64,000 nucleotides of DNA, taken from positions 1 through 64,000 of IMG/VR virus record IMGVR_UViG_3300037851_000222. The stretch is one strand, 5' to 3'. Under the pieces are notes generated by a model, which was not told where the DNA came from, ran no database searches, and saw only the letters and a program-made list of their open reading frames with translations. Origin of the DNA: a virus. Below are positions 35,486-62,545 of this stretch, one piece after another. Position numbers and translations under genes: made by a program. Position 1 is the first letter of the stretch. Every line of letters begins with the position of its first letter.

Positions 35486-36622
35486 TCAGGTACGGAGAGT
35501 CGAGATGCTGCGGATCCGCGCCACCCAGCCCAAGCTGGCCGCCGTGGCGGTCAGGCGCAGGTCGGCTCCTGAGATGTCCACGTCGAGCGTGCAATCCACG
35601 GTACCTGGGGTCAGGACGACATCGGTCTCCAAGTGATATGGCAGCACCCCATCGTGGCTGGCCCGGATGGTAGCCGAGTAGCGGACGGTGCCCTTGGTCA
35701 GGGTCACGTCCCACAGGACTGACTCAGCCGCAGCCAGCGGCACGGTGGCGATGGCGGTGGTGCCCACGGCCAAGGCGCCGCTGGTGGTCTGCCCAACCGT
35801 GCCGGCGCCGAGTTCTTGAAGCGCGCCCTCGACGTTGGACGAGGTGTAGTAGCCCCCGGCGTCAACGATGGCGACTTCGGCCGCCGTATTGGTGGCGTCG
35901 CTGATCTTGGTGTAGTCCGCAGTGTTGCCGGTGATGGCGTTGATGCGGTAGGTACCGTCTTCCGCGCCTCCGGCCGAGCCGTAGATGATGACGACCTGTC
36001 CGATGATCTGACCGTCTGCCGCTTGGGCCGCCGCCGCGTTGGCCAGCGAGGTGTAGACCAGCGTCGGTGTCCAGACCAGTTCGTTGGTGGTGATGTCGTA
36101 GAGTAGCTGCGCGCCAGCCGTGGCCGCGGGGGCGGCGATGGGCACGCCGTATAGGCCGACCACGTCGGGGTTTGGGTAGAACCCCGTCAGGTCGCCGCCG
36201 GCCGGGCCGATGACGGCGCCGCCACCGGCGCCCCAGTTGGTGGAGCCGTCCGCGGCGTTCTCATTGTAGACGACATAGACGATGTATGTCGTTGATTGGC
36301 GCTCTTGCGAGAGGTAGCCACCGCGCACTGGCCCGAACCAATAGCCTGGGTTTGCCGCGATGTAGGCCGTCACCGCATTGACCGACTCAATCAAGGTCCG
36401 ACCTGTGAAGACCTTGAGTTTGTAGGGGTTGGTGATCGGGGTGCCGCTATCGTTGTAGCGGGTGATGAATTGAAGCTCAAAGTTTTTGGTCCGAACCCGG
36501 TCGCCCGTGACGAATCCGATGTCGATGATGGTATGGTTCAACAGGCCTGAGAAGGCGTTGTTGAAGTTGGTCTCCATGGCTGTCGGAGTTTCGCCAAAGA
36601 TACCCAGGACGAAGTCAGCCAT
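35486..36622 (-). CDS. Tandem beta-alpha-beta-beta domain protein with fibre-like C-terminus (paralog 2 of 5)
   Basis: Paralogous N-terminus; GPAGGDLTGFYPNP and NVEGALQEL fibre motifs. Confidence 0.75.
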   Translation of the reverse strand: MADFVLGIFGETPTAMETNFNNAFSGLLNHTIIDIGFVTGDRVRTKNFELQFITRYNDSGTPITNPYKLKVFTGRTLIESVNAVTAYIAANPGYWFGPVRGGYLSQERQSTTYIVYVVYNENAADGSTNWGAGGGAVIGPAGGDLTGFYPNPDVVGLYGVPIAAPAATAGAQLLYDITTNELVWTPTLVYTSLANAAAAQAADGQIIGQVVIIYGSAGGAEDGTYRINAITGNTADYTKISDATNTAAEVAIVDAGGYYTSSNVEGALQELGAGTVGQTTSGALAVGTTAIATVPLAAAESVLWDVTLTKGTVRYSATIRASHDGVLPYHLETDVVLTPGTVDCTLDVDISGADLRLTATAASLGWVARIRSISTLRT

Positions 36623-39195: not shown

Positions 39196-40059
39196 TCAGG
39201 CCTCCCGTGATCTGACAGCTTCCGGCCAGAGTGTATCCAAGGTTTTGAGGATGTCATCGGCGGGTTTCAGCAGGGTCGGGGAGAGCCCTTCTGGCAGCTT
39301 GACACCGGGACGGACGACTAACTTGAACCCCCGCAGACTGCCGAGCCTGGTCAAGACCTTACCCCATCCATCGGCTTGGAAGGCTCCACTGGCAACGATA
39401 ATCCCATTACCAATGATCAAAATATGCTCAAAGGCCGCCTTCTCCAGGTTGTCTGAACCCTCGGACGGGAGGGGGGAGATCGCCAACTTGTCTTCGGGGA
39501 GCCCCCAGCCGCGAATGACCTTGAGGATCGGCAGCGTGCCGGGGTTGCTGGGGGTTAGCACCTTGACGAACCAGTGAGGGCTGTTGGCCAGGGTGTGGAC
39601 CTGTTCCAGCACCGGCAGGACGCCCTCTGGCGAGGCGATGTGGTCGAGGATGAAAGCCGCCCGGCGGGGCAGCTTCATGGCATTCTGCCCCTGCTCCTTC
39701 AGCTTTTTCTTGGAGGCGCAGGTCTTGCACCCACCCGGATCAGCCGGCTTGGGGGCCACCTTTCCGCCGATCAGGTTGAGGATCCGCACATCGAGGTCGT
39801 AGCACCACATAGCAGCCCGAACGGGGCCGTACGCGGCCAGAGCCAGCCACAGCGGGGCGACCCAGGGGTTGGTCGCCACGGGCAGGGCGCAGGCCGCGCC
39901 CAGGGCGATCCAGAATAGGTTGCAGGCCTCGCAGTTGATGATCGGGACCAGCCGCAGCTTGCTCCGCAGTTCGTCGAAGACCCGCTCACGGTTGTAGATC
40001 CGGTGGATGGCGAGAACCACCAAAGGGTAGAGGGCGAGGGCGACGATTTGAGGCAGCAT
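39196..40059 (-). CDS. DUF1360-like membrane protein with two CxxC motifs
   Basis: RIYNRERVFDELR...INCEACNLFW; GGCKTC; AGGAG SD. Confidence 0.6.
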   Translation of the reverse strand: MLPQIVALALYPLVVLAIHRIYNRERVFDELRSKLRLVPIINCEACNLFWIALGAACALPVATNPWVAPLWLALAAYGPVRAAMWCYDLDVRILNLIGGKVAPKPADPGGCKTCASKKKLKEQGQNAMKLPRRAAFILDHIASPEGVLPVLEQVHTLANSPHWFVKVLTPSNPGTLPILKVIRGWGLPEDKLAISPLPSEGSDNLEKAAFEHILIIGNGIIVASGAFQADGWGKVLTRLGSLRGFKLVVRPGVKLPEGLSPTLLKPADDILKTLDTLWPEAVRSREA

Positions 40060-40071
40060 GGAGGCTCCTGG

Positions 40072-40707
40072 TCAAGTGGGGTCGTCGCAGCAGGTGGGGA
40101 AGGCCCAAAGCTGCTGGGAGGTGTGGTCGGAGACGATGATCGCCATGGTCCCTAGGGACATGCTGAATGCCCCTTTGTTCACGGCGGCCACGTCCCGAAA
40201 CCGTCCACTGGACGAGTATAACCGTACTGTCCCTGTCGCCCCTGACAAAATGTTGCCTTGGCTCACGCCGATTGCCGGGCGTTTTGTGTTGAACTGCTGA
40301 TCCCCCACTGCGAAAGATCCGGCCCCCGCCGCGGTCACGACCTCCGAGATGAGGATGACCGACTGGATCAGTTGCCGCACGGTCGGCGCGGTCACATCAA
40401 ACAGCATCCTGGGGAACAGGGTTGCGGCATTTGCCGCATAAAACGCCGCAACCTGCGCATCGAACGAAGTACCCGCGTTGGGGTCGAAGGCCAGCACGTC
40501 CGCTTGGTAGGTGGCGAGGCCGCCCGTGCGGTACTGGAACACCCCGGAGAAGATGATGTCGTTCGCGTTGTCTTGCAGCAGCCGCACGTCGGCGCTGATC
40601 AAGGAGATGCCGCCCAGGAGCGCGAAGAGGTTGTTGACCGCCAGGTTGAAGTTGCTGGCGCTCTGCCCGGGCTTGGTCCTGATCTGCGATGATTGAATGA
40701 AACCCAT
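40072..40707 (-). CDS. Tandem beta-alpha-beta-beta domain protein ending in CC (paralog 3 of 5)
   Basis: Same domain order as the N-termini of 40711 and 42756; ends FPTCCDDPT. Confidence 0.7.
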   Translation of the reverse strand: MGFIQSSQIRTKPGQSASNFNLAVNNLFALLGGISLISADVRLLQDNANDIIFSGVFQYRTGGLATYQADVLAFDPNAGTSFDAQVAAFYAANAATLFPRMLFDVTAPTVRQLIQSVILISEVVTAAGAGSFAVGDQQFNTKRPAIGVSQGNILSGATGTVRLYSSSGRFRDVAAVNKGAFSMSLGTMAIIVSDHTSQQLWAFPTCCDDPT

Positions 40708-40710
40708 GGG

Positions 40711-42759
40711 CTACTCCGGGTCCGGGCAGGTGGTGTCATCAATGGTGCAGTCATTTTCCTGCACCGTGGTTCGGATGGCGAAGCACTCCCTCCCGGGGTT
40801 TGTGTCATAGGCCCAGTCCTCTTCCACCCCTCCTGAGACACACTCCCGCGAGACCTCGACCGGATCGCTCCATTCGCTCGTATCACAGTTCCACTCGCTC
40901 TCCCAGTGGTAGACGCAGTCATAGCAGCAGTTGGACGGCTCAGCCAGCGTTGGCCCATCCGGCGTGTCGGGGCCGGTGGGGCAGTCGCTGCCGCCGACCG
41001 TGCAGGCGTCCTCTTCCGCTGTCTTCCGGGTGGCTTTGCACTCGTTGCCGGCCCCTGCCATGTAGGCCCACGCCGTGACTTGACTGATGCCATCCGCCAC
41101 ACATTCGGTGTTGCCCAGCACTGGGTCGCCCCACACACCACTGATGCAGTCCCACTCGGACTCCCAAGTGTAGACGCAATCCCAGTAGATGCAGTCGGGG
41201 ACGCATTCATCTTCGACGGTGCTGAACAGCACCCCTTCACCTGTCGCTTGGGTGATGGCCCCCTGGTCTTCGCACAAGCAGCCGCTGCGCAGGTAGACCT
41301 CGGCCCACTCACCGTCCGGGTCGCAGACCCAGTTCTCGGTCTCGTTGGGGCCAGGTGCGCCTTGGTGCTCGCAACCGTCACTGTCGTTGCTGATGCACTC
41401 GGCGGCGTCGAACTGCCACACGGACTCGCCGTAATCCTCGACACAGATGTACTTGACGTGCGTGCAGCAGGAGACCGGGCAGCACGCGGCTTCAATGCTG
41501 GGCACACGGATCGGGTTGTTGGCCTGCGCCTGGAAGTCAGGCGCCGGCAGCAGTTGCAGCAGTGTGTTCTGATCGTTCTCCCCACACTCGCACAAGCCCT
41601 GCTCCTCGTACTCGACATGGTCGATGACGTTGTCGAGGTCCAGGTCTTGCTCGGTCAGGGTGGCGTCGGGAGCACAGTCGGCGTTGTCCACGCAGGCGAT
41701 GCTGGTCAGCGTCCACTTGGACGTGCAGGTCTGCGTGGCCTCATCGAAGGTGTCTTCGCAGTCGAACACCGCTTGGAGGCAGCAGTCAGGCGGGGGCGGC
41801 GGGGGGGTGCAGCACCGCGGCGGACAGGTGGGGTCGGGCACGACGGCCGGCAACGGTGCACCGCACCGGCAGGCGTACTTGCGCTCCCAGTGGGCAGTCA
41901 GATCGTTGCAGGTGTAGTAGAACCAGCCATGGAGGCATTGGTCGTTCGGCAGACACCGGATGTTGGTCAGCACCCACACGTCGACATTGTTGATGCACTG
42001 ACAGACGTGGTCGTAGGTCAGGCAGCAGTTGTTCTTGGCAGGGTCGGTGGGGTCGGGCGGGTTGTTGCGGTCCTGGGGGTCCGGCGGGTCGAAGAACACC
42101 GGAGGCCCGCCAGCGTTGCAGGCGGCCCCTACCGGTGAGATCGGCAGCGGCAGGATATCGTCAGCCCCAGCCACACCGCAGCAGTTGAGGCCACCATGTC
42201 CTGCGGTGGCCGCGTTGACCAGCAGGCCGTTGGTCTGCGCTGGCCAAGTCAGGCCGCCGAGGTTGTTCGCTTCCAGCCGGTCTGGTTGGACGGCGACGTT
42301 GCTCAACTGTGAAAACTGCCCGGCGGTGGCCGTGAGCACCGACTCCTCCGCTTGAGCGGGGAAGTGGACGTTGCCCAGGGTCAGGTATTGCGTGGCCCGA
42401 GGTTGGTAGATGGCCAGGATGCGCGTGGGGTGCGTGAACCGGCTCTTGCTCCGGGTGATGTTCCACGTCTTCAGCAGATCGTAAGGGTTGTTCAGGAACC
42501 AGTTGGCCAAGGCTTGGCTGGCAGTCGCCCCGGCCAAGGGGTTGTCGATGAACTCAATGGCCCCATAGGTGGTGCCGCCGGCCGATTCGTAGGCGACGAC
42601 GATCTGGTAGCGGTAGTCGGCCCCCCGCTCCTCAAAGCGGACGCTGATGTCCTGAAGGGTGATCTCCGGGTTGACTTGGAAAAACTGATTCAGCACGCCC
42701 GCGATGACGTTGTTGGTCGACCCGGTCGGGATGACGAAGGACTGGATGCGCTGCGTCAT
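40711..42759 (-). CDS. Paralog 4 of 5 with about five cysteine-rich repeats (putative disulfide-stabilised stalk)
   Basis: Repeats such as DCVYTWESEWDC...PTLAEPSNCC and DCVYHWESEWNC...TTCPDPE. Confidence 0.8.
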   Translation of the reverse strand: MTQRIQSFVIPTGSTNNVIAGVLNQFFQVNPEITLQDISVRFEERGADYRYQIVVAYESAGGTTYGAIEFIDNPLAGATASQALANWFLNNPYDLLKTWNITRSKSRFTHPTRILAIYQPRATQYLTLGNVHFPAQAEESVLTATAGQFSQLSNVAVQPDRLEANNLGGLTWPAQTNGLLVNAATAGHGGLNCCGVAGADDILPLPISPVGAACNAGGPPVFFDPPDPQDRNNPPDPTDPAKNNCCLTYDHVCQCINNVDVWVLTNIRCLPNDQCLHGWFYYTCNDLTAHWERKYACRCGAPLPAVVPDPTCPPRCCTPPPPPPDCCLQAVFDCEDTFDEATQTCTSKWTLTSIACVDNADCAPDATLTEQDLDLDNVIDHVEYEEQGLCECGENDQNTLLQLLPAPDFQAQANNPIRVPSIEAACCPVSCCTHVKYICVEDYGESVWQFDAAECISNDSDGCEHQGAPGPNETENWVCDPDGEWAEVYLRSGCLCEDQGAITQATGEGVLFSTVEDECVPDCIYWDCVYTWESEWDCISGVWGDPVLGNTECVADGISQVTAWAYMAGAGNECKATRKTAEEDACTVGGSDCPTGPDTPDGPTLAEPSNCCYDCVYHWESEWNCDTSEWSDPVEVSRECVSGGVEEDWAYDTNPGRECFAIRTTVQENDCTIDDTTCPDPE

Positions 42760-44549
42760 ATTTCAAGCTCGTTGTGTGGGAGTTGCTGGACCGCGATGAC
42801 TTGGGCGAAGCTCTCGGGGTTGGTGTCTTCGTGGCCGACCCAAGTCCCCCCATTGTCAGTGGAGTAGAAGGAGCGCCCGAGCACACCGAAGGTCATGATC
42901 CAGGTGTTGCTGAGGCCCTTGCGGTAGGCCAGGGTCACTTCGGGGTCGAAGTTGTCTCCAAAGTTTGCGATGCCGGTGCCGAGGGGTATATTGCCGACAA
43001 AGGTCCAAGTGGTACCATTATCGTCCGACCGGATGAATCCATAGGCCCCGCTACCGCCGTTCACACAGAACACACCGACCAGCCACACCCCGTTGCCGTC
43101 CGTCTCAACGTGCCGGGTGGTGTACGGCCCCGGCAGTGCCAGGGCCAAATTGGCCATGGCCGAGGTGATGTCGGCAGGCGCCCACGATTGCGGATTTGAG
43201 ACTCCCATGACCATAACCAGAGGGCTGCCGAGTGCGTCACGACCCACGGCGACCCCGTACCCGTTGCCCAGCGCGTCGTAGGAGAACGCGGCACGGAAGA
43301 AATAACCTGGGTTATATGCCTCTAGGGTTGTGACACGGGTTATGGCTGGTATCAGGTTCATGTATTTGTCAGCGAGGAGAACGATTGGATAGGCGTGTGT
43401 GGCTTCCCAACCGAAGATCATCACGTCGCCGTTGTAAAGCCGGTAGCATGCGTTCAGTGACCAGTCCCACGGGGTTGGATAGGGCAGCCCAGCCACGGTC
43501 AGGGCAGGGAAATCTTGGAGAGACCCGAAATCCTCAAACCAGATGATGCTGCCATTGACGTTGGGGTCGTAGTTGTAAATCTGCCGGGACGTGATGAAAA
43601 GCTGCGGGGGCTGGCCGTAGGTGGCCAAGGTGGCACCCCCTGCGTAGCTGGAGACATCCGGCTGGGTGAAGATGGAGTTGTTCCAAGAGAGCCCGCGATC
43701 CGTTGACTCTTGAAGCACACTGGCGCCGTAGTTGTTCACCGGGATGGAGAACAGGCGGATGTTGGGATACTCCTCTTTCGCCACCAGAATAGGATCGGGA
43801 TTGCCGGTGCCCTCTTCCACGACGACACCGTCCAGGGTGTAGAGGGCGATCCCGAGGGCTTGGTTGTTGCCGGGGCCAGCAAACATGGGGTCCGGCGGCG
43901 GCGGGATGATGTTTCCACAGCAGGACGGCAGCAGGTAGACCAGATTGCTGTTGGGGTCCATCACGGCGTAGTGGCTCACGCCGACCTCGGCCGTCACGGT
44001 CGGGTGGACGTTCAGGGCCACACCGGAGCCCGCACCCGTTCCATCCGGCCGAAGGTAGGTCACGCTGCCCGGCTGACCCGGGAGGATGTCCTCCTCGGCA
44101 CGGACCATCAGCAGGTGTTCGGGCAGGTGCCCATGCAGAGGGTTGTCAGCCAGCCCGTCCGTGTAAACCACCAGCAGCCGCAGGGGCGTGGCTGCGCTGT
44201 TCTCCAGGTCGGTGAGGTCCACGATCTTGTAGGGCTTGAGGGGCGTGCCGTTCGGGAAGAACACCTCGTAGGCGGCCTGAACCTCGTCGTGGCTGCCTTG
44301 GAAACCCACGGCCCTGTAGAAGTTCCCCGAGGCGACCGGGGCTGGGGGTGGGGGCAGGATTTCCTCGTAGAGGACGCGCACGACGATGTTGCCGCCGGTG
44401 ATGTTGTCCTTCTTCCCCGAGTCGCGGATGATGTCAAAGATCCGCAGGCGCCCCGTGGCGAAAACGGTGTTCAGGTCATCGACGACTTGGTCCAGGCCGG
44501 CGCCGGTGGTATCGCCTGTCGTCAGGATCTTTACAGCGCCGGTGGCCAT
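42756..44549 (-). CDS. Paralog 5 of 5 with C-terminal Asp-box (BNR) beta-propeller
   Basis: LPSCCG linker; STDRGLSW, SDDNGTTW, STDNGGTW Asp-boxes. Confidence 0.8.
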   Translation of the reverse strand: MATGAVKILTTGDTTGAGLDQVVDDLNTVFATGRLRIFDIIRDSGKKDNITGGNIVVRVLYEEILPPPPAPVASGNFYRAVGFQGSHDEVQAAYEVFFPNGTPLKPYKIVDLTDLENSAATPLRLLVVYTDGLADNPLHGHLPEHLLMVRAEEDILPGQPGSVTYLRPDGTGAGSGVALNVHPTVTAEVGVSHYAVMDPNSNLVYLLPSCCGNIIPPPPDPMFAGPGNNQALGIALYTLDGVVVEEGTGNPDPILVAKEEYPNIRLFSIPVNNYGASVLQESTDRGLSWNNSIFTQPDVSSYAGGATLATYGQPPQLFITSRQIYNYDPNVNGSIIWFEDFGSLQDFPALTVAGLPYPTPWDWSLNACYRLYNGDVMIFGWEATHAYPIVLLADKYMNLIPAITRVTTLEAYNPGYFFRAAFSYDALGNGYGVAVGRDALGSPLVMVMGVSNPQSWAPADITSAMANLALALPGPYTTRHVETDGNGVWLVGVFCVNGGSGAYGFIRSDDNGTTWTFVGNIPLGTGIANFGDNFDPEVTLAYRKGLSNTWIMTFGVLGRSFYSTDNGGTWVGHEDTNPESFAQVIAVQQLPHNELEI

Positions 44550-45343
44550 TGGCGTTCTCCGTTGTGGCAGAGGGCCAGGGCACCCTTGGCCGCAGCCAGG
44601 AACGCCTCGTCTGCGTAAGGGTCGCCGTAGGCGTCGAGGGGGTAGCCGGGGTCCACCGGCCGGGGGGCGTTGTCGGTGTTCTGGAGCATGCTCGACATCC
44701 ACCCTTGGATGACGATGCGGCCAGTGCAGTTGAGCACGTCGGTCTCGGTGCGGGGGAAGTTGCCGATGGGCTGCTCAATGCCCATGACCCGCATGCGGAA
44801 GTTGATGTCCTGGTTGCTGTCCCAGCGCATGAAGGTTGGAATCGGCAGGAAGTGCCCGCCCAGAGCATACTGCTTGGCTGGGTTCGGTTCACCGCCGGTC
44901 AGGTTGTTGATCTTGATGTCCTCAAATACGCCCAGCCGCTCGCTCGACCGCAGGGCCTCAATCTCAAACACTTCATTGATCGGCAACTGCGGGATCTCGT
45001 AGCTGATCTTGTTGACGATCACCATGTAGTTGTCGGGCACGACGAACCCACTGATGATGTTGTACCACGTCTTGTAGAACAGCATGCAGACGGTCGTGCT
45101 GATCGTGAACGACTTGCCCCAGTAGTTGGCGGCGTTCCACGGCGGTTGGTGGATCGGCAGCAGCAGCGAGCAACCGGGCGCCGAGCCGCGAGGCTCGGGG
45201 GCGTTGACACCGTCCTGGGGCGGCGGTTCGTGCATGAACCTCTCGGCGCGGTCCTGCCGGGCCAAGTCGGTCCAGAAGTACCACATCGCCCGGTCGAGGA
45301 TCAGGTCGTCGGGTCCGGTCGGGCGCTTCACTTCGTCAGCCAT
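44531..45343 (-). CDS. Putative single-jelly-roll virion protein
   Basis: QPPWNAANYW motif, GFVVPDNYMVIVNKISY, terminal RIVIQGW strand. Confidence 0.6.
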   Translation of the reverse strand: MADEVKRPTGPDDLILDRAMWYFWTDLARQDRAERFMHEPPPQDGVNAPEPRGSAPGCSLLLPIHQPPWNAANYWGKSFTISTTVCMLFYKTWYNIISGFVVPDNYMVIVNKISYEIPQLPINEVFEIEALRSSERLGVFEDIKINNLTGGEPNPAKQYALGGHFLPIPTFMRWDSNQDINFRMRVMGIEQPIGNFPRTETDVLNCTGRIVIQGWMSSMLQNTDNAPRPVDPGYPLDAYGDPYADEAFLAAAKGALALCHNGERQWPPAL

Positions 45344-45866
45344 TGCGGCGCCCTCCGCGCTCTCCGACGTAGGTGGCGGGGTCGGTGTCGGGGTAGAAGT
45401 AGCCGAACAGTCCGACGTAGTAGCGATGCCCCGAGGCGCTGATGTTTCGGACCTCAATCGTCAGTTTGGACTGGAACGCCACGATCTGCTGCAACGGGCG
45501 CTTGAAACAGGGCCAGAGGATGTTGGCCAAGTCGCGGCAGATTTCCGCGTCCTGGGGCAGGGTGACGTAGGGCATCGGGTTGCCATCGTGCATCAGCCGG
45601 AACTCGACACCACTGCCTTCTAGCGGCACCTCGGCGGCCACAGCGAAGTGAGTCACGACCCCGACGTAGTGGCTCTTTCCCTCGACGCTGACGGCCTCGG
45701 ACCAGAGGGGTTGGTTCATGCCGATGCGGCGGCACCGGGTGGCCAGGAGGGGCAGGGCGTAGAACGGTGCAGTGTTCCAAGCGGGCCGGCGAATGCCGGT
45801 CTGCCCCGAGCGCAGGGTGAGCGCCGTAGCCCCGATGGCGATGGGGATGGCGGGTGGGAGCGGCAT
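45336..45866 (-). CDS. Putative single-jelly-roll virion protein
   Basis: RPAWNTAPFY motif, VEFRLMHDGNP, LTIEVRN...VGLFGYFYP. Confidence 0.6.
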   Translation of the reverse strand: MPLPPAIPIAIGATALTLRSGQTGIRRPAWNTAPFYALPLLATRCRRIGMNQPLWSEAVSVEGKSHYVGVVTHFAVAAEVPLEGSGVEFRLMHDGNPMPYVTLPQDAEICRDLANILWPCFKRPLQQIVAFQSKLTIEVRNISASGHRYYVGLFGYFYPDTDPATYVGERGGRRNG

Positions 45867-45881
45867 CGGTCGGCCCTCCCG

Positions 45882-46553
45882 TTAAAATGCCACGCCGATT
45901 TTCGGCCCGCCGGCTTGGTTGAGGGGGCGCCAGGAGTAGCCCTTGAGGCACACGTCCACGTCGGTCGAGCCCACGGCGGCGACAGCGCGGCGCACCATGA
46001 AGGTGATGCGATCCTCGCGCCAGGACTCGGCCAGGATGAAGGTGCTGGCCGGCAGGACCAGGGTGCCGCGCTGCTCCGCGATGTCTTGCAGGCCCGGCAC
46101 GGCCGAGCCGTTCTTGCACACTTGGAACAGGATGCTGCCGTCGTAGGTGTAGAGCGGGTCGAGGACGTTGAACCCGTAGCCCGTGATCCGCACGCCCCGC
46201 CCCTCGGGCATGGGCACGGTCAGGGCCACGGCGTAGGCGCCGGCCGCAGCCGGGACGGTGACGCGGGCCGACAGGTCGATGGGCTGGGACCAGTAGTGCG
46301 GAGCGTTGTAGGCCGGCTCCGCGGCGGTGAAGTTGGTGTTCTCCAGCAGCTTGACCATGCGCTTCATCAGGAAGGCCACCTCGGCCGCCAGCGCCGGGGG
46401 TACGCCGCTGCCGCGTTGCGGCGCAGTGCCCTGGGCGATGGCGCGGAACCCATCGGGCGGATTGTAGGCCTCGGCGCTACGCCGCCCGTTGGGGTTCGCT
46501 TGGGTGGATTGCGGGGCGCCACCACCCTGGAGGTAGTCCATGTAGGGGTCCAC
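45882..46553 (-). CDS. Putative single-jelly-roll virion protein
   Basis: EPAYNAPHYW motif, VPMPEGRGVRITGYG, ILFQVCKNG, VCLKGYSW. Confidence 0.65.
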   Translation of the reverse strand: MDPYMDYLQGGGAPQSTQANPNGRRSAEAYNPPDGFRAIAQGTAPQRGSGVPPALAAEVAFLMKRMVKLLENTNFTAAEPAYNAPHYWSQPIDLSARVTVPAAAGAYAVALTVPMPEGRGVRITGYGFNVLDPLYTYDGSILFQVCKNGSAVPGLQDIAEQRGTLVLPASTFILAESWREDRITFMVRRAVAAVGSTDVDVCLKGYSWRPLNQAGGPKIGVAF

Positions 46554-46565
46554 CTACGGCTCCGA

Positions 46566-47102
46566 TCAGACGTTCGGGGTGTAGCCGTAAATCTTGAAGC
46601 CCAGCAGCGTGAAGAACACGTCATTGTCCGCACCCGACAGGTCGGTCAGGTCGAACGAGACGGTCGTGTTCGCCGGTAGCAACAGGGGCTTCGGCAAGAT
46701 GTCGGGACGCTCGGCGGTGCCGACGAACGCCGCGCTGTGGACGGCGCGGTTGTTCAGTTGGCGGTCGCTGGCGTCGATGCGGGTGTCGATCAGGTAGGCA
46801 CCGGTCGAGGCACCGTTGACGTAGCGGGCGATGAAGGCCGCGTCGGCGGTGATCTTGATGGTGGCCGTGGCCTGGCCGTTGGCCGCGAGGGCATTGCCCA
46901 AGCGGCTCGACAACTCAAAGCTGTACGCATACGGCAGCACGTTGGCCGCCGGGTACGCTCCGAGGATGTCGAACAGGGCCTGGCGGATGCTCGCCAAGCC
47001 GAGCATGTTGGCCAGAGCCTCGGGCTGGAGGCTGCGGCCGATTTGCGCCATCTCGGGCGGCATCGGGATTTGACCCTTGCCGGGGAGCATGCCAGAGTCC
47101 AT
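46566..47102 (-). CDS. Putative single-jelly-roll capsid/penton protein
   Basis: Eight-strand pattern YSFEL...IKITADAAF...RQLNNRAV...LPKPLLLPANTTVSFDL...VFFTLLGFK; own promoter and AAGGAGG SD. Confidence 0.7.
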   Translation of the reverse strand: MDSGMLPGKGQIPMPPEMAQIGRSLQPEALANMLGLASIRQALFDILGAYPAANVLPYAYSFELSSRLGNALAANGQATATIKITADAAFIARYVNGASTGAYLIDTRIDASDRQLNNRAVHSAAFVGTAERPDILPKPLLLPANTTVSFDLTDLSGADNDVFFTLLGFKIYGYTPNV

Positions 47103-47131
47103 TACGGACCTCCTTCGCTGTTGTGCTGTCG

Positions 47132-47175
47132 ATCATACCCTCGTCTAAACGAGGTGCAAGTATTCTGTTTATACA
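47132..47175 (-). promoter_or_regulatory. Sigma70-like promoter with two operator-like sites
   Basis: TTGCAC-16nt-TATGAT; CTCGTTTAGACGAG in spacer; TGTTTATACA at 47166. Confidence 0.65.
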
Positions 47176-47894
47176 GAGAATGCCAAGCGTTTCTTTGATT
47201 TATGACGCTTCATCGCCTTAACGTACTTCTCGACCCCCGCATCGGTGGTCAGGTGTGCATAGAGTTTCACCGCGCTGCGAATGGACTCGCAGCGACGATG
47301 GAACTTGGCGGTGGGCAGCACGATGTCCTGACCATTGCGGATGACGACGTGGATGCCGACTGGCTTTTGCTCAAAGAACGGGTAGCGCGGGTTGTTCTTG
47401 ACGCCCCGCAGGATTTCCTCCGTCAGGCCGACCTTCATTACTCGGCCGGCGCTGTCCCGCAGCCCCTCGGGGTGGTCGACGGACGGCGAGACCCAAGCCC
47501 TGATCCGCGTCCGCCCCGCCAGTATGTGGGCCACCAGCCGCCGATGGCCGTCGATCACCCGCAGGGTGCCCGCGTCGGTCTGGATGACGTGGATGGGCGC
47601 GAGCCGCTTGCCCGAGCGCAACTGCTGCGCGTAGGCCAGGGCGTGCGCCTGCTTGGTCGGGTGCAGGTGCTGCCACACCTCGTCGCCCTTGCGTCCGTAG
47701 GTCAACTCCGGGGCCTGCAAGTCGCGGATCCGCACGGAGCGAAGCTGCTCGATCTCGTGCCCGTAGGGACCGGCGACCGCGTCCCGCCGCCACGTCCCGA
47801 GAGGGTAATTCGGCACCGGCCGGCGCTTGCGGCTGTGGCCGGCGGGGGCCTTGCGGGCGTAGGCTTGGAGGGAGAGGTAGCGGGGGTTGGTCAT
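47169..47894 (-). CDS. ParB/Srx-like domain protein
   Basis: LAPIHV...RVIDGHRRLVAHILAGRTRIRAWV. Confidence 0.8.
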   Translation of the reverse strand: MTNPRYLSLQAYARKAPAGHSRKRRPVPNYPLGTWRRDAVAGPYGHEIEQLRSVRIRDLQAPELTYGRKGDEVWQHLHPTKQAHALAYAQQLRSGKRLAPIHVIQTDAGTLRVIDGHRRLVAHILAGRTRIRAWVSPSVDHPEGLRDSAGRVMKVGLTEEILRGVKNNPRYPFFEQKPVGIHVVIRNGQDIVLPTAKFHRRCESIRSAVKLYAHLTTDAGVEKYVKAMKRHKSKKRLAFSV

Positions 47895-48982
47895 CCCGGC
47901 ACCTCCGGTGCGGCGTCCGATGCCTTGACCCTGACGTTCTTGACCACCCGCACCCGGTCAGCGGGGATGGTGCTCTGCCGCAGTCGCAGGATGTTCGACT
48001 CGGGCGCGGCACCCTTGTCCATGACCCAAGTGTCTTCCTCGACGGTGAAGTCTAAGCCCTCCATGTCGATTTCCAACAGGGACACGACACCAGGGCGCAG
48101 GAAGTCATCGCGCAGCAGGAGCGGGATCCATTGCAGGGCGTCACCAGGCGTTGGCGCGACGTGGACCTCGTAGGTCTCGCCGTCGAAGTGCCGCAGCCCT
48201 AGGTACTGCCCCTTCTTCACCCGGCCGCCAACTACTCGATACCAGACGGTCTGTGGCCCCGTCACGACCTCGTCCAGGGCACGCTTGGAGGCTGCATAGG
48301 CCTTGTTGCCGGCCACCTGCTGCGCGACCCACGCCACCACCTCGTCGGTGGGCGCGCCCTCAAACTGCTTCAGGTAGGCTCGCAGGGCGTCGTCACGGGT
48401 GAACGTCGCGGCCCACTCACGCATGATGGGGATGTCGCGGAACCGCTCGGGGAGCCGGCTGGGGTTGGTGATCACGGCTGTCCTCCGGCTGAAGGCGCCG
48501 GTGTTGGCCACCGCCTTGACCTGCTTGGGGTCAAGGACCGCGAGGAAGGCCGGATCGCGGACGGGCACCTTGCCCAGCATGAGGCTTTGCCCCGGCACCA
48601 TGACCCCGTCGTGCCCGACCAGCGCGGTGTCGCGCCAAGCCGCCCACCACTGGCTGTCGCCGCCGTGGGCGCCTCGCAGGTCGTTCCATCGCTCCCTCGT
48701 CAGGCGCTTCGGCCGCAGGATGCGCAGGTAGCACGCCATTACCTTGCCGCCGTAGATGCCGGCGAAGTCCCGGTCGTCGGTGAACCAGAACCCGACTTTG
48801 CTCGACCCCTTCCCGGTCTTGGTGCGGTCGAAGCGGTCGAACGCGGCGGTCGTGCCGTGGTAGACCACCAGCGGACGCCCCTGTTCATCAACCGCTTTGG
48901 ATTTACCGAACCATTGCCAGAAGTTGACGATACCCGCCTCGGTAGGGTGGATCAACTGCCCGAGACTGTTGTGGCGGATCAC
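47891..48982 (-). CDS. ART-PolyVal-like ADP-ribosyltransferase fused to a second (possibly ART-like) domain
   Basis: NFWQWFGKSK...PLVVYHGT, GFWFTDD, ACYLRILRP, GHDGV, PKQVKA.NTGAFS. Confidence 0.75.
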   Translation of the reverse strand: MIRHNSLGQLIHPTEAGIVNFWQWFGKSKAVDEQGRPLVVYHGTTAAFDRFDRTKTGKGSSKVGFWFTDDRDFAGIYGGKVMACYLRILRPKRLTRERWNDLRGAHGGDSQWWAAWRDTALVGHDGVMVPGQSLMLGKVPVRDPAFLAVLDPKQVKAVANTGAFSRRTAVITNPSRLPERFRDIPIMREWAATFTRDDALRAYLKQFEGAPTDEVVAWVAQQVAGNKAYAASKRALDEVVTGPQTVWYRVVGGRVKKGQYLGLRHFDGETYEVHVAPTPGDALQWIPLLLRDDFLRPGVVSLLEIDMEGLDFTVEEDTWVMDKGAAPESNILRLRQSTIPADRVRVVKNVRVKASDAAPEVPG

Positions 48983-48992
48983 AACGCCCCGA

Positions 48993-49394
48993 TCAACCGA
49001 CCTGCGAGGCCCGCTTGGTGTAGCCGCTGTCGGACTGCCGGGAGGGCTGGTCAATCACCTTGAGGTTGACGTGACTCTCGTTGGCCTTGTCGTGCAGGCA
49101 GGGGCGGTTCTTCATCACGAGAGTATTCTGGTTGATGGCCTTGATCAACTCCCGCTGCACCATGGAGTTCTCGCGGATCGCCTGCACCACTTGATCTGTC
49201 ATCTCGGTCTGCTTGGCGCCGAAGTCGGTTGCCAGCTTCAGCCGATCCTCTTCCGTGTCGTTCAGGCGCTTGGCCAGACGCTCCCACTGGACACGGAACC
49301 AGACATTTTGCTTGTAAATGTACCACATAAGGACACCAGCGATACTTGCATAGCCGCCAAATGATTTGGCGACTTCCAGCAGTTGCTCAAGCAT
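48993..49394 (-). CDS. Holin-like single-TM plus coiled-coil protein
   Basis: FGGYASIAGVLMWYIY then heptad-rich region; own promoter TTGCCG-16-TACCAT. Confidence 0.55.
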   Translation of the reverse strand: MLEQLLEVAKSFGGYASIAGVLMWYIYKQNVWFRVQWERLAKRLNDTEEDRLKLATDFGAKQTEMTDQVVQAIRENSMVQRELIKAINQNTLVMKNRPCLHDKANESHVNLKVIDQPSRQSDSGYTKRASQVG

Positions 49395-49455
49395 GATAAG
49401 GCTCCGGTTCAGGGTGCGGCTTCATGGTACCGTGCTTCGTATAAACGGCAAGCAT

Positions 49456-50205
49456 TCACTCGCCCTGGCGGTGTCTCTGTACGACCTTCCAACCCTTAGT
49501 CTTACAGGCCTTTATCTGTTGATTGGCCTCGGCGTAGGTCAGCTTGGACCGCCGCGCCAGGCCCCATTGGTAGCCGTCGCTCTCGCGCGCCGTGCAGAGC
49601 ACCTTGGTCTTGCTGACCCGTCCGTAGCGCCGGGTTGCGAGGCCGCTGGGGGCCTCCAGGGTGATGGAGGTGAGCTTGGTAGGTGGGTTGGTGATCACAG
49701 GGTCGCTCGGGTCGAAGGTGCCACGGTTGCCGATAGCGGACTTGATTTGGGTGGGGTCGAAGACGATGTAGTAGGTCTCGCCGCTATCTTCGTCGTACAA
49801 CCAAACCCCGTCGCAGCCCTCATCTTTGGCTGCCAGCATCAACTCGGCCTCGATCTTGACTTGCCCCAAGTCACCGGGTTCCAAGTCATATTCGTAGGGG
49901 TTTTCCATCTTCAGGTAGACAGGCATGACGTTGTGACCAAAGTATTTTGCAGTTTCTTCATCAGGACTGAAGAAAAACCCTGTAGTATGCTTGGGGGCTT
50001 GAACCCCACGCTTCGCAACGGTGGCACCAAAGTCTTTGTCCGAAAACTGATTGAACTTGGCATTGGTCCCGTGGTAGACGACCAGGGGCACAGGGCCTTG
50101 TTTGGTTATCGTCGTGACCTTGCTGTCCCCGAACCACCGCCAGAAGTTGACAATGCCGGCTTCTGTGGGGTGGATCAGTTTTCCAAGCGAGTTGTGGCGG
50201 ATCAT
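49456..50205 (-). CDS. ART-PolyVal-like ADP-ribosyltransferase with short basic C-terminal domain
   Basis: PLVVYHGT, GFFFS, VMPVYLKMENP, GCDGV, YIVFDPTQIKSAIGNRGTFD. Confidence 0.8.
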   Translation of the reverse strand: MIRHNSLGKLIHPTEAGIVNFWRWFGDSKVTTITKQGPVPLVVYHGTNAKFNQFSDKDFGATVAKRGVQAPKHTTGFFFSPDEETAKYFGHNVMPVYLKMENPYEYDLEPGDLGQVKIEAELMLAAKDEGCDGVWLYDEDSGETYYIVFDPTQIKSAIGNRGTFDPSDPVITNPPTKLTSITLEAPSGLATRRYGRVSKTKVLCTARESDGYQWGLARRSKLTYAEANQQIKACKTKGWKVVQRHRQGE

Positions 50206-50396
50206 CTCGTTAACCCCTCCAGGTCGCGCCCGATGTTGTCAGCCCAGTCGGCGTCGTAGGTCAGTGTCTGCTTGCCCGCCTCAATCATCAGCCGCCGCTC
50301 CTGGGCCAGGTCGAACAAGGTGCGGACCTGCGCGGCGGTCGGCCGCACGACGACGGCGGTCAGGGCGACGATGATGTAGCTGATATGGACGTTCAT
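50202..50396 (-). CDS. Hypothetical protein
   Basis: Fills gap, coupled to neighbours. Confidence 0.5.
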   Translation of the reverse strand: MNVHISYIIVALTAVVVRPTAAQVRTLFDLAQERRLMIEAGKQTLTYDADWADNIGRDLEGLTR

Positions 50397-50397
50397 G

Positions 50398-51471
50398 TCA
50401 GCGTGCCCTCAAAGGACGGACGGTGGGTGTTCCACCGGCCGCACCAGAGACCGGCTTCCACGGCCCCATGGGGCTGATGCTATAGACGGCCGGGCCATAG
50501 GTGGGCAAGGCCATCCATCGACCGAGTGTGGGTGAGTAAGCGACCCCAGGCTCGGCAACGACCACCCCTGATGCTGGCCAAGTGAACACAACCGTCCAAC
50601 TGGCGCCGTCGAAATGCCACAGAACATTGATAAAGCCGCTCAAGTCGTTGAACCGGGCGTAGCCAACGACCAGCCAGTTGGACCCGCCGTCATACGCCAC
50701 CGCTTGGGCGGTACCGTAGGCATTTCCGAAGTCGCCAAAGACATAACCAGGAGGCGCTGGAAGCAACGTCGGGTTGAACGTGACAGGGAGGGTCAGATCA
50801 GAGAAGTAGGCGATAGGCTCTGACCCGACGCCGCTTCCACCTGTGTACCCAACCGCCAGCGTCCCGGCCACGTCCAGCAGAGCTTCCCCCGCGGGAGTGG
50901 ACACAAACTCAACGATACTCGTACCATCGTAGGGGCCTGTGACCCAGCCGGCGAGCGTGCCCTGGAAGGTGGGGGCCACCCCCGTCGCCGTGATGAGAAT
51001 GATGTCACTTCCTATGTAATCCACGAATACCGACGAGATCGCCGCCGTGGTGGGGAAGTCTCCTCGGATGGGCAGGTCCACCGGACCACCGGGAGTCACA
51101 AACCGGAAGAACTCGCCAGGTCCGATGGTTTCCCCGATGCCGAAGATCCAATCGTTTAACGGCATGCGCCCGAAGTAGGGCAGATTGAACCCCAAACCAC
51201 TGTAGGTGGTCCACGGATCCAAGACATCACCGGCGTTTGATATACGAGGCAGGGCGGACCAAGAGGGGGCACGGGAAACCCAGAAATAGCCGTTGATTGA
51301 GGCCATCCAGAGGTCAACCGTTGAGATGGAGGCCCCGCCCGCCCCGCCCGCAGGAACGACCCCCGCCCACGACATGCCATCGACGGAGTAGCGACCGAAG
51401 CAATCGAGGAAGTAAGCCTCCACGTCGCAGCAACCCGGCGGCTCGGCCAAGGTGGGTTTAGGAGGGGGCAT
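50398..51471 (-). CDS. Beta-propeller-like protein with N-terminal PTLAEPPGCC peptide
   Basis: SVDGMSW, FDGASWT, GVAYSPTLG. Confidence 0.7.
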   Translation of the reverse strand: MPPPKPTLAEPPGCCDVEAYFLDCFGRYSVDGMSWAGVVPAGGAGGASISTVDLWMASINGYFWVSRAPSWSALPRISNAGDVLDPWTTYSGLGFNLPYFGRMPLNDWIFGIGETIGPGEFFRFVTPGGPVDLPIRGDFPTTAAISSVFVDYIGSDIILITATGVAPTFQGTLAGWVTGPYDGTSIVEFVSTPAGEALLDVAGTLAVGYTGGSGVGSEPIAYFSDLTLPVTFNPTLLPAPPGYVFGDFGNAYGTAQAVAYDGGSNWLVVGYARFNDLSGFINVLWHFDGASWTVVFTWPASGVVVAEPGVAYSPTLGRWMALPTYGPAVYSISPMGPWKPVSGAAGGTPTVRPLRAR

Positions 51472-51736
51472 GGTGTTTCCTCATGATCCGGTCAGTTTCG
51501 CCCTGGTGGTACTGAACCAGCCGGTCCAAGTAGCACTCTGGGCACAGCGGCACGGCGCTGAACTCGCCGCCCACCGTGCCCTCTGGCGGCATCAGCTTGG
51601 TCCCGCACCGGCAGACCTCGGGCGCGAAGCGTGGCTTGTCCTTGTCGTCCATCTGGTATGGCGCCCCGCACCCGGCGCAGACGACGTGCCCCTGCCACTC
51701 GACGGCGCCGTGTGTCTGGCAGGCGAGGGCGGTCAC
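51458..51736 (-). CDS. Cys/His zinc-finger protein (paralog of 59051-59239)
   Basis: CQTHG...CAGC...CRCG...CPECY. Confidence 0.65.
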   Translation of the reverse strand: MTALACQTHGAVEWQGHVVCAGCGAPYQMDDKDKPRFAPEVCRCGTKLMPPEGTVGGEFSAVPLCPECYLDRLVQYHQGETDRIMRKHHAPS

Positions 51737-52779
51737 TGGAGCGCCCTCAGCGTCCAGACGAGGGCGCTGGGCTGCCCGGCGTAGAGCGTGGTCTGGAACG
51801 TCCACGCGAGCCCGTTCGGGCTGGTGTAGACCTGAAACCCCGTGTCCGTGCCCAGGATCGCCACGAACAGCCCCAGCGTTGGCGACCAAGCGATGCCGCC
51901 GAAGGCGAGCCGCCCCGTGAGCACCGAGACGGGGAGTTGCAGCACCGCCCCGGAGGTTCCGTAGACCCAGATCGCAGCGTAGTCCTGCCCGGACTCGCGG
52001 CGCCTGCCAAGTCCGACCGTGGTGCCACCGTTGGTGGCGACCCAGGAGATTTCACTATATGGACTCGGCGGGTTGACCTCGGCGTTCTGGATCGTCCAGG
52101 CAGAGGAAGCATAGGGCGGTGGCTTGAACCACCACCTGGCGACTTGACCAATGGAGGTGAGTTGGCCACCGACCACCACCCCGCTCGGGTTGATGCACAG
52201 GTCTCGGGGGAAGCTGTTGGGGTTGCCAGCCAGTTGCACCATGAACGCATTTGCATTGATGTAGGGCTGCTGCTCCCATCCGAACAGATACCCATTGTTG
52301 CTGAAGTCCTGCCCGCACGTCAGCAGGGCGGTGCCCGACCCCAGCGGGGACACCGCGAAGGTGTACCTCGGACTCAACGACACCCCGGGCAGACCGCCCA
52401 GCACACGAGAGGCACAACCTACCTTGTAGCCGACCCCATTGGCGAACAGGTAGCCGTCCAGCATCACCGGCAGCAGCGCGCCCTCGCGGCCGAACCCACC
52501 AGGCGCGCCATCACAGCCGATGTTGGCCCATGTGCCCAAGGCCGGCGACACCGCCCGGAGCGAGTTGCCCACTCCACCGCTGATACCAAGAACATCAGGC
52601 GTCTCCCCAGGCAGAGTCGAGAGACTGTCTGGCGGGATGGTCCGCGGGTAGGGCTGTGTGTTCCATACGCTCGGGACGGACGACATCACCAGCACCTCAT
52701 CCTCAGTGGTGCCGGCGATCAGATACGGGGCGCCGCAGCACCCCGGGGGCTCGGCCAAGGTCGGCTTGGGCGGTGACAT
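51733..52779 (-). CDS. Beta-propeller-like protein with N-terminal PTLAEPPGCC peptide
   Basis: GIAWSPTLGLFVA, YTSPNGLAWT; AAGGA SD. Confidence 0.7.
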   Translation of the reverse strand: MSPPKPTLAEPPGCCGAPYLIAGTTEDEVLVMSSVPSVWNTQPYPRTIPPDSLSTLPGETPDVLGISGGVGNSLRAVSPALGTWANIGCDGAPGGFGREGALLPVMLDGYLFANGVGYKVGCASRVLGGLPGVSLSPRYTFAVSPLGSGTALLTCGQDFSNNGYLFGWEQQPYINANAFMVQLAGNPNSFPRDLCINPSGVVVGGQLTSIGQVARWWFKPPPYASSAWTIQNAEVNPPSPYSEISWVATNGGTTVGLGRRRESGQDYAAIWVYGTSGAVLQLPVSVLTGRLAFGGIAWSPTLGLFVAILGTDTGFQVYTSPNGLAWTFQTTLYAGQPSALVWTLRALQ

Positions 52780-62218: not shown

Positions 62219-62545
62219 ATGACCCGCATTGAAGCCCTCCGCTACGTCCTCACCCTGATCCCGGCCAAACACCCGGCGAAGAAGGTTATTGATAACATTC
62301 TCGCAGGCCACGAAGGCCGCCCGGTCGTTCGGACGCTACTCAAGGATCGCATCTATGACGCCATCAAACGTCGTGAGGGAATGACCAAGGCGGAACTGGC
62401 CCGCGAAGTGGAGACCGACTACACTTCCTTGCAGCGCAACATGGAGGATTTGGTTCGGCAAGGCTTGGTCTCCATAAAGATGGGCTACTCGCGCAAGCGC
62501 CCTCGGCTCATGGTCCAAACTGTCTACACTAAAGGTTCCAAATGA
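62219..62545 (+). CDS. Winged-helix DNA-binding protein
   Basis: IYDAIKRREGMTKAELAREVETDYTSLQRNMEDLVRQGLV. Confidence 0.75.
   Translation: MTRIEALRYVLTLIPAKHPAKKVIDNILAGHEGRPVVRTLLKDRIYDAIKRREGMTKAELAREVETDYTSLQRNMEDLVRQGLVSIKMGYSRKRPRLMVQTVYTKGSK

Follow-up and report, generated by a model that had tools for sequence, protein, structure and literature searches.

The stalk gene and the two tip genes share a proline-rich motif

In the window analysed here, the first 64 kb of a 94,993-bp virus record (IMG/VR record IMGVR_UViG_3300037851_000222; completeness 63% according to CheckV), we investigated a gene for a cysteine-rich protein of 682 residues, hereafter the stalk (40711..42759, minus strand, with its TAG stop at 40711-40713), together with two genes that we call tip A (50398..51471, minus strand; 357 residues) and tip B (51733..52779, minus strand; 348 residues). 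The three are connected by a short motif, a proline-rich PTLAEP followed by two variable residues and a vicinal pair of cysteines (CC), of which a six-frame scan of the full 94,993 bp returned exactly three coding-frame copies: one inside the stalk, at residues 603-612 (40924..40953, minus strand; hereafter the cis connector), and one at residues 6-15 of each tip. A looser fourth match near 62440-62470 on the minus strand (PSLAEP, three residues, CC) is in a frame outside the likely genes, and we take this match, near position 62468, as due to chance. An earlier reading of the same DNA, referred to below as the original prediction, held that the last module of the stalk is truncated and is completed in trans by the N-terminus of either tip. 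The coordinates, strands and sequences of the three open reading frames on which it was built proved correct, and the stalk does end in two homologous repeats, the last of which stops at TCPDPE.

The terminal module of the stalk is complete

The stalk carries 49 cysteines and is laid out as an N-terminal domain of about 194 residues ending in CC (the N-domain), a series of cysteine-rich modules that mostly open with CC, and, at the C-terminal end, two modules of the type we refer to as WESEW. Seven CC pairs occur along the chain, and at the module starts the CC is followed by a hairpin. The penultimate WESEW module (residues 519-596; 40972..41205, minus strand) contains eight cysteines spaced C-3-C-4-C-9-C-14-C-20-C-11-C-6-C. 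The terminal one (residues 611-682; 40714..40929, minus strand), which is 48% identical to it and ends in CPDPE directly before the TAG, likewise contains eight, spaced CC-2-C-9-C-14-C-18-C-11-C-6-C with CC611-612 as the first two, in parallel with the penultimate module and with the corresponding module of both homologues of the stalk (see below).

The number of cysteines assigned to each module depends on where the modules are cut. The count of eight against six, from which the last repeat had been considered incomplete, follows from one placement of the cut, whereas both modules have eight if the pair of cysteines that precedes DCVY is assigned to each. These two leading cysteines occur in both homologues as C-3-C-4 and lie upstream of the module, not downstream of it. 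Given the parallel spacing of all eight cysteines, the CC of the cis connector is most simply understood as the first cysteine pair of the last module and not as the closure of the penultimate one.

Structure prediction was consistent with this assignment. With the homologues aligned to the last module, AlphaFold modelled residues ~610-682 with a predicted local distance difference test score (pLDDT) of 78-93 as four strands, beginning at the CC, and gave the connector low confidence. When the homologues were instead aligned to the penultimate module, residues 592-608 were modelled at a pLDDT of at least 50, like that module itself, and the values dropped over residues 609-616; the whole-stalk model from this second alignment had a mean pLDDT of 40 and was unusable for fold searches, so that the pattern over residues 592-608 is to be read as a hint only. 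In both models the cis connector is a coil. As a hint from the models, this suggests that the motif is made of two parts, a PTLAEP connector that would belong with the upstream module and a CC that would belong with whatever follows. Considered as a possible acceptor domain, the terminal module has the same predicted strands and the same eight-cysteine spacing as its penultimate sister, so that nothing is missing from it, and the stalk is thus 'headless' in the sense that it ends in a complete WESEW module. In a fold search with the terminal module the highest Z score was 3.8, and several three-finger domains of the Ly6/uPAR type lay at about 3; we treated this as no assignment, and a search of BFVD returned nothing at E ≤0.001.

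The motif forms a conserved N-terminal leader of both tips

In both tips the motif is part of a leader made up of residues 1-15 (51427..51471 in tip A and 52735..52779 in tip B, both minus strand). The two leaders are identical at 14 of 15 positions; the tips have no other significant similarity to each other, their remainders cannot be aligned, and neither contains the N-domain. Tip A, an orphan except for its leader, has three cysteines (residues 14, 15 and 24), and tip B has six. Because an in-frame stop lies three codons before the ATG of tip A, no start codon is found ahead of that of tip B, and Shine-Dalgarno-like sites of the GGAGG type lie before both genes (GAGGA in the case of tip A), we consider the leaders to be the true N-termini. 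In the public annotation tip A (P0004, 350 residues) is started only at codon 8, a TTG, which removes half of the leader; automatic gene calling of this kind would hide the motif of tip A.

At the DNA level the two leaders differ at 8 of 45 nucleotides. Six codons differ synonymously only and one codon changes proline to serine, and the similarity ends at both edges of the leader, the flanks being unrelated. Estimated by hand, synonymous divergence amounts to about 1 per site or more and non-synonymous divergence to about 0.03. Such an excess of synonymous change between unrelated flanks argues for an old divergence under strong purifying selection rather than for recent gene conversion. The location of the motif at the extreme N-termini of the tip genes and the conservation of its three copies at the level of protein, both asserted in the original prediction, were therefore borne out. 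The free leader contains six prolines in the twelve residues between the initiator methionine and the CC, which itself directly follows a proline/glycine-rich stretch (...EPPGCC).

The description of both tips as propeller-like is plausible from their sequences, but the two differ in what stands behind it. Tip B contains a clear blade unit, AWSP..LG..S.DG..W, at residues 293-327 (i-E 3e-14), as found in the 7-fold repeat protein P0006, while the evidence for tip A is limited to weak motif and language-model leads.

Relatives and paralogues of the stalk

Searches among 5.8 billion clusters returned two homologues of the stalk, P0002 and P0003. The first (814 residues) has two tandem N-domains and one WESEW module, in which there is a ninth cysteine, and ends with DCPEP-stop. 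The second (676 residues) has one WESEW module with eight cysteines, followed by CP, a proline-rich connector, CC and a different tip of about 100 residues in cis. Fused stalk-propeller genes had been suggested as worth looking for; the fusion in P0003 has a different tip behind the same kind of connector and CC. With the terminal module of P0002, the last module of the stalk shares 58% identity and the penultimate one 45%. Taken together with the same CPxP-stop end in this distant homologue, this identity indicates that the headless end is ancestral and not a fresh truncation; further, the headless P0002 and the tip-bearing P0003 indicate that both forms exist and that the junction between stalk and tip is the connector. 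Cysteine parity was considered as a marker of headless forms and discarded as uninformative, the totals being odd in all three stalks (49, 43 and 47), including the form with a tip in cis. No relatives turned up in IMG/VR, which was scanned with the stalk, with tip A and with the stalk alignment, nor in JGI metagenomes or GTDB genomes. A degenerate DNA pattern of the motif had 4 matches in IMG/VR and 56 in metagenomes, all of them chance matches or in unrelated frames.

Within the window, the stalk gene stands between two paralogues, encoding proteins of 597 and 211 residues, and the three genes are adjacent, translationally coupled and share an N-domain of about 190 residues that always ends in CC. 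This relationship is transitive through P0002 (BLAST E 3e-24, 4e-5 and 1e-3; also found with hidden Markov models). In the 597-residue paralogue (42756..44549, minus strand), whose stop overlaps the start of the stalk gene, the N-domain with its CC is followed by a proline linker and a BNR/Asp-box-like C-terminal domain in cis; the match to Pfam BNR reached 21.4 bits, under the cut-off of 27, and a search for homologues of this protein returned only itself. The 211-residue paralogue (40072..40707, minus strand), hereafter the stub, is an N-domain alone, ending in CC plus four residues, and these two cysteines are the only ones it has. Its gene begins 3 nucleotides after the stalk stop and in the stalk frame. 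At 40705-40713 the TAG of the stalk, a CCC and the ATG of the stub gene consequently follow one another in one frame, and read-through of the TAG would place a second N-domain on the end of the stalk, an arrangement that can be compared with P0002, in which two N-domains naturally occur in one chain. In addition, a 378-residue protein encoded at 35486-36622 (minus strand) weakly matches the first half of the N-domain profile (E 7.5e-4) and, judged by this match, may be a further paralogue of the presumed attachment domain of the spike.

Possible docking of the tips on the stalk end

The region as a whole is best explained as a modular receptor-binding (spike or fibre) gene set of an uncultivated virus. 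In the mechanism that we propose, the N-domain of about 190 residues would serve as the virion-attachment domain common to the 597-, 682- and 211-residue proteins, and the leader would dock either tip onto the end of the stalk. We advance this docking tentatively, at somewhat short of an even chance, and have more confidence in the broader statement that the leader is a functional adaptor of some sort. The leader would rest, extended but not as a strand, on the terminal WESEW module, in the way that the cis connector would rest on the penultimate one, and either tip, or a mixture of the two, could be mounted on the same stalk; after release, the CC of the leader may contribute a metal site or a disulfide between chains. 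The most far-reaching version, in which the tips mimic the inter-module connector of the stalk and the vicinal cysteines then lock stalk and tip together covalently after release from the cell, appears to us rather unlikely. The motif, the selection on it, the layout of the modules and the existence of fused and headless relatives are observed; binding, its site and any covalent lock are inferred. Independently of any model, since the tips have no other anchor, the leader is the sole element that they share and that is under selection, and the stalk has this very peptide after its sister module, the stalk end is the best candidate site.

Prediction of a complex between the last stalk repeats and the N-terminus of a tip, which had been put forward as a check on the original prediction, was carried out with tip A only and gave a result in the class 'weak support'. 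For stalk residues 515-682 with tip A residues 1-70 the score was 0.58, compared with 0.01 for the best of three controls; the runs agreed in at least 98% of contacts, and pLDDT was 88-89 for the stalk and at least 48 for the partner. The mark applied to such scores is reached by 58 of 80 solved complexes and by 2 of 110 mismatched pairs, and at values of 0.60 or below by 7 of the 80 and by both of the mismatches, although these counts are only rough for the present case, for which our own alignment (A1) was used. We interpret this modelled complex as compatible with docking and not as proof of it.

Several observations weigh against the docking of the tips on the stalk end. A pass in the weak class is wrong more often than not, except where the guess was already likely; the fold of the tip A fragment in the complex is uncertain (pLDDT ~50); and the model may simply copy the cis arrangement of the same chain. 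The stub, which ends in CC, offers an alternative docking site. Instead of neighbouring the stalk gene, the tip genes lie 8-10 kb upstream of it, with ADP-ribosyltransferase and other genes between. Finally, the conservation of the leader is that of two paralogues in one genome: an exhaustive HMMER search with tip A found only itself among 1.84 billion representatives, and the search with tip B found only a generic blade-repeat protein, no relative covering its leader. What survives of the interchangeable plug-in tips originally predicted is a free leader under selection, its identity with the cis connector, the headless and tip-bearing relatives and a complex prediction of the weak class, detached from the donor-strand mechanism by which the tips were supposed to be held.

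Alternative explanations

The alternative that survives best is that the leader is a docking peptide for a partner other than the stalk end, namely the stub or another virion protein, and that its likeness to the connector stems from common descent through module shuffling at this junction. The locus encodes two headless proteins (682 and 211 residues) and two anchorless tips, and the stub together with a tip would reproduce the architecture of the 597-residue paralogue, with its N-domain, CC, proline linker and BNR-like domain. Moreover, the lone terminal CC of the stub cannot readily pair internally, and shuffling at CC junctions is evident from the tandem N-domains of P0002 and the other tip of P0003. 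However, PTLAEP occurs in cis only after a WESEW module and never after an N-domain, and the stalk end with tip A, the sole pairing that was run in silico, did pass, if weakly. On balance we regard a different partner as unlikely, albeit as an explanation to be taken seriously.

We find it improbable that the terminal module is a strictly split repeat, to which the tip N-terminus donates a missing strand and CC, with inter-chain disulfides as the lock. The stretch C593-P-x15-CC, at the end of which the cis copy of the motif stands, does resemble C312-P-P-R-CC earlier in the stalk, so that a module could close with CC, and the complex score of 0.58 against 0.01 is equally compatible with this arrangement. 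The odd number of cysteines in tip A (three) and the presence of only a CC in the stub also imply that some cysteines are inter-chain or metal-binding; odd totals, though, are found in all three stalks and are not specific to headless forms. Against a split repeat stand the eight cysteines with parallel spacing in both WESEW modules, with the leading pair upstream in the homologues, the confident modelling of the last module as four strands without any added peptide, and the conservation of the CPxP end in P0002. The same evidence overturns the earlier view of the last repeat as incomplete. The role of donor strand fails on the peptide itself: with six prolines in twelve residues, and with its cis copy modelled as coil both times, it is unable to make a regular edge strand.

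Equally little credence, in our opinion, is due to the possibility that there is no docking at all and that the leader is a relic left by recombination in a linker or else a signal for processing or targeting, in which case the tips may not be surface proteins. The tip genes lie outside the spike operon, among ART-PolyVal and ParB-like genes, and the lineage is too small for a comparative proof. The motif also contains L-A-E, and sites of the Leu-x-Glu type are used by the prohead proteases of T4-like phages. A relic, on the other hand, would not keep 14 of 15 residues identical with about half of the codons synonymously different and the rest of the genes diverged; the neighbouring ART proteins are without such a leader; and BNR-like propellers are typical binding heads, one of which the 597-residue paralogue carries in cis on its N-domain. 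Two further mechanisms were rejected. One is switching by DNA cassette or inversion: with the tips upstream on the same strand, recombination from one motif copy to another would remove the structural operon, and the copies have no more than 14 contiguous nucleotides in common. The other is a split intein, for which the leader is much too small, and the last repeat is paralogous to an ordinary module.

Comparison with known systems and significance

The original prediction considered its plug-in system to be without a described viral example. This does not hold for the general principle, since phages are already known whose interchangeable receptor-binding proteins dock through short N-terminal peptides. 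In K1-5, K1E and SP6, N-terminal peptides of 7 and 11 residues dock two tailspikes on the gp37 adaptor, and in G7C gp63.1 docks on gp66; in KP32, RBP1 is a branching-domain protein for the 'conserved peptide' of RBP2, whose first 29 residues are needed for incorporation, which their deletion abolishes; an enzyme domain of foreign origin can also be mounted on them (PMC6872550, PMC13352976). Unrelated binding domains behind one peptide allow these phages to carry two specificities at once (PMC6872550, PMC13352976). As in those systems, tips A and B are proteins without an anchor domain that have a short N-terminal peptide in common (residues 1-15). They differ in several respects. The known docking sites are T4gp10-like, and none is detectable in the stalk by Pfam, PHROG or PDB sequence searches, though a remote structural likeness is conceivable, the whole-stalk model being poor; the present leader is identical to an internal connector of its presumed partner and ends in vicinal cysteines; and that partner is an extremely cysteine-rich modular stalk whose gene is not adjacent to those of the tips.

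With donor-strand complementation in chaperone-usher pili, docking of the leader would share the idea that the N-terminal extension of one subunit fills a site on the one before it. Pilins are Ig folds in which the last strand is missing, and their extension forms a β-strand with alternating hydrophobic residues. The terminal module of the stalk, in contrast, has its full complement of cysteines and strands, and the peptide is a proline-rich coil. A different parallel is offered by type III collagen, in which an inter-chain cystine knot forms at Gly-Pro-Cys-Cys-Gly and the CC of a trimer can form a ring of three inter-chain disulfides. There, too, a vicinal CC comes straight after a proline- and glycine-rich stretch (here EPPGCC). 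By analogy, a collagen-type trimer knot would explain the CC at module borders and the stub with CC as its only cysteines, but the likeness is one of sequence context alone and no Gly-X-Y repeat is present here. Extensive disulfide cross-linking of structural proteins assembled in the cytoplasm has a precedent in the tail of Agrobacterium phage Milano; there, however, the bonds tie sheath and tube subunits and no tip-docking peptide is described (PMC10811340).

If the leader does dock either tip, it would constitute a minimal portable tag of about 13 residues by which unrelated binding domains are mounted on one viral spike. The docking principle would be distinct from that of T4gp10-like branching domains, and would have evolved independently of the branching systems of this type used in phage host-range engineering. 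In this case, a connector inside a repeat protein would have become an intermolecular docking signal when the gene was split, providing a route between fused and plug-in receptor-binding proteins. It would also offer a first way into the function of a lineage whose structural genes cannot be placed in any known family and whose stalk has only two detectable relatives.

Gene neighbourhood

The recognisable replication genes encode a D5-like primase-helicase, a DnaG zinc ribbon, a UvrD helicase and an N6/N4 methylase. Across the 95 kb (63% complete per CheckV), a terminase (PF03237), FtsK and an A32 ATPase were looked for and not detected. Pfam and PHROGs gave no match for the stalk, the tips, the stub and most of their neighbours, the only hints among the proteins of the structural block being weak ones of cement or decoration proteins further downstream, and sequence searches of the PDB, with the stalk included, were without a match. 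Two paralogous genes for ART-PolyVal ADP-ribosyltransferases (47891-49054 and 49456-50205, minus strand; E 1e-18 and 7e-25) were recognised in the window and lie, with a ParB-like open reading frame (47169-47894), between the tip genes and the structural operon.

A small open reading frame comes after each of the tip genes (51458-51889 and 50202-50396, both minus strand), and neither of the two has a Pfam match. The first of these overlaps the start of tip A by 14 nucleotides and encodes paired CxxC-type motifs resembling a zinc ribbon; the products of both may be assembly chaperones. Upstream of the spike operon, four small tandem genes (44531-47102, minus strand) encode proteins of 308, 176, 223 and 178 residues without a family match. 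Directly 3' of the operon (39196-40059, minus strand) is the gene for a predicted membrane protein of 287 residues, which has no Pfam match and contains two CxxC motifs; it could be a candidate thiol-disulfide oxidoreductase that serves the cysteine-rich proteins.

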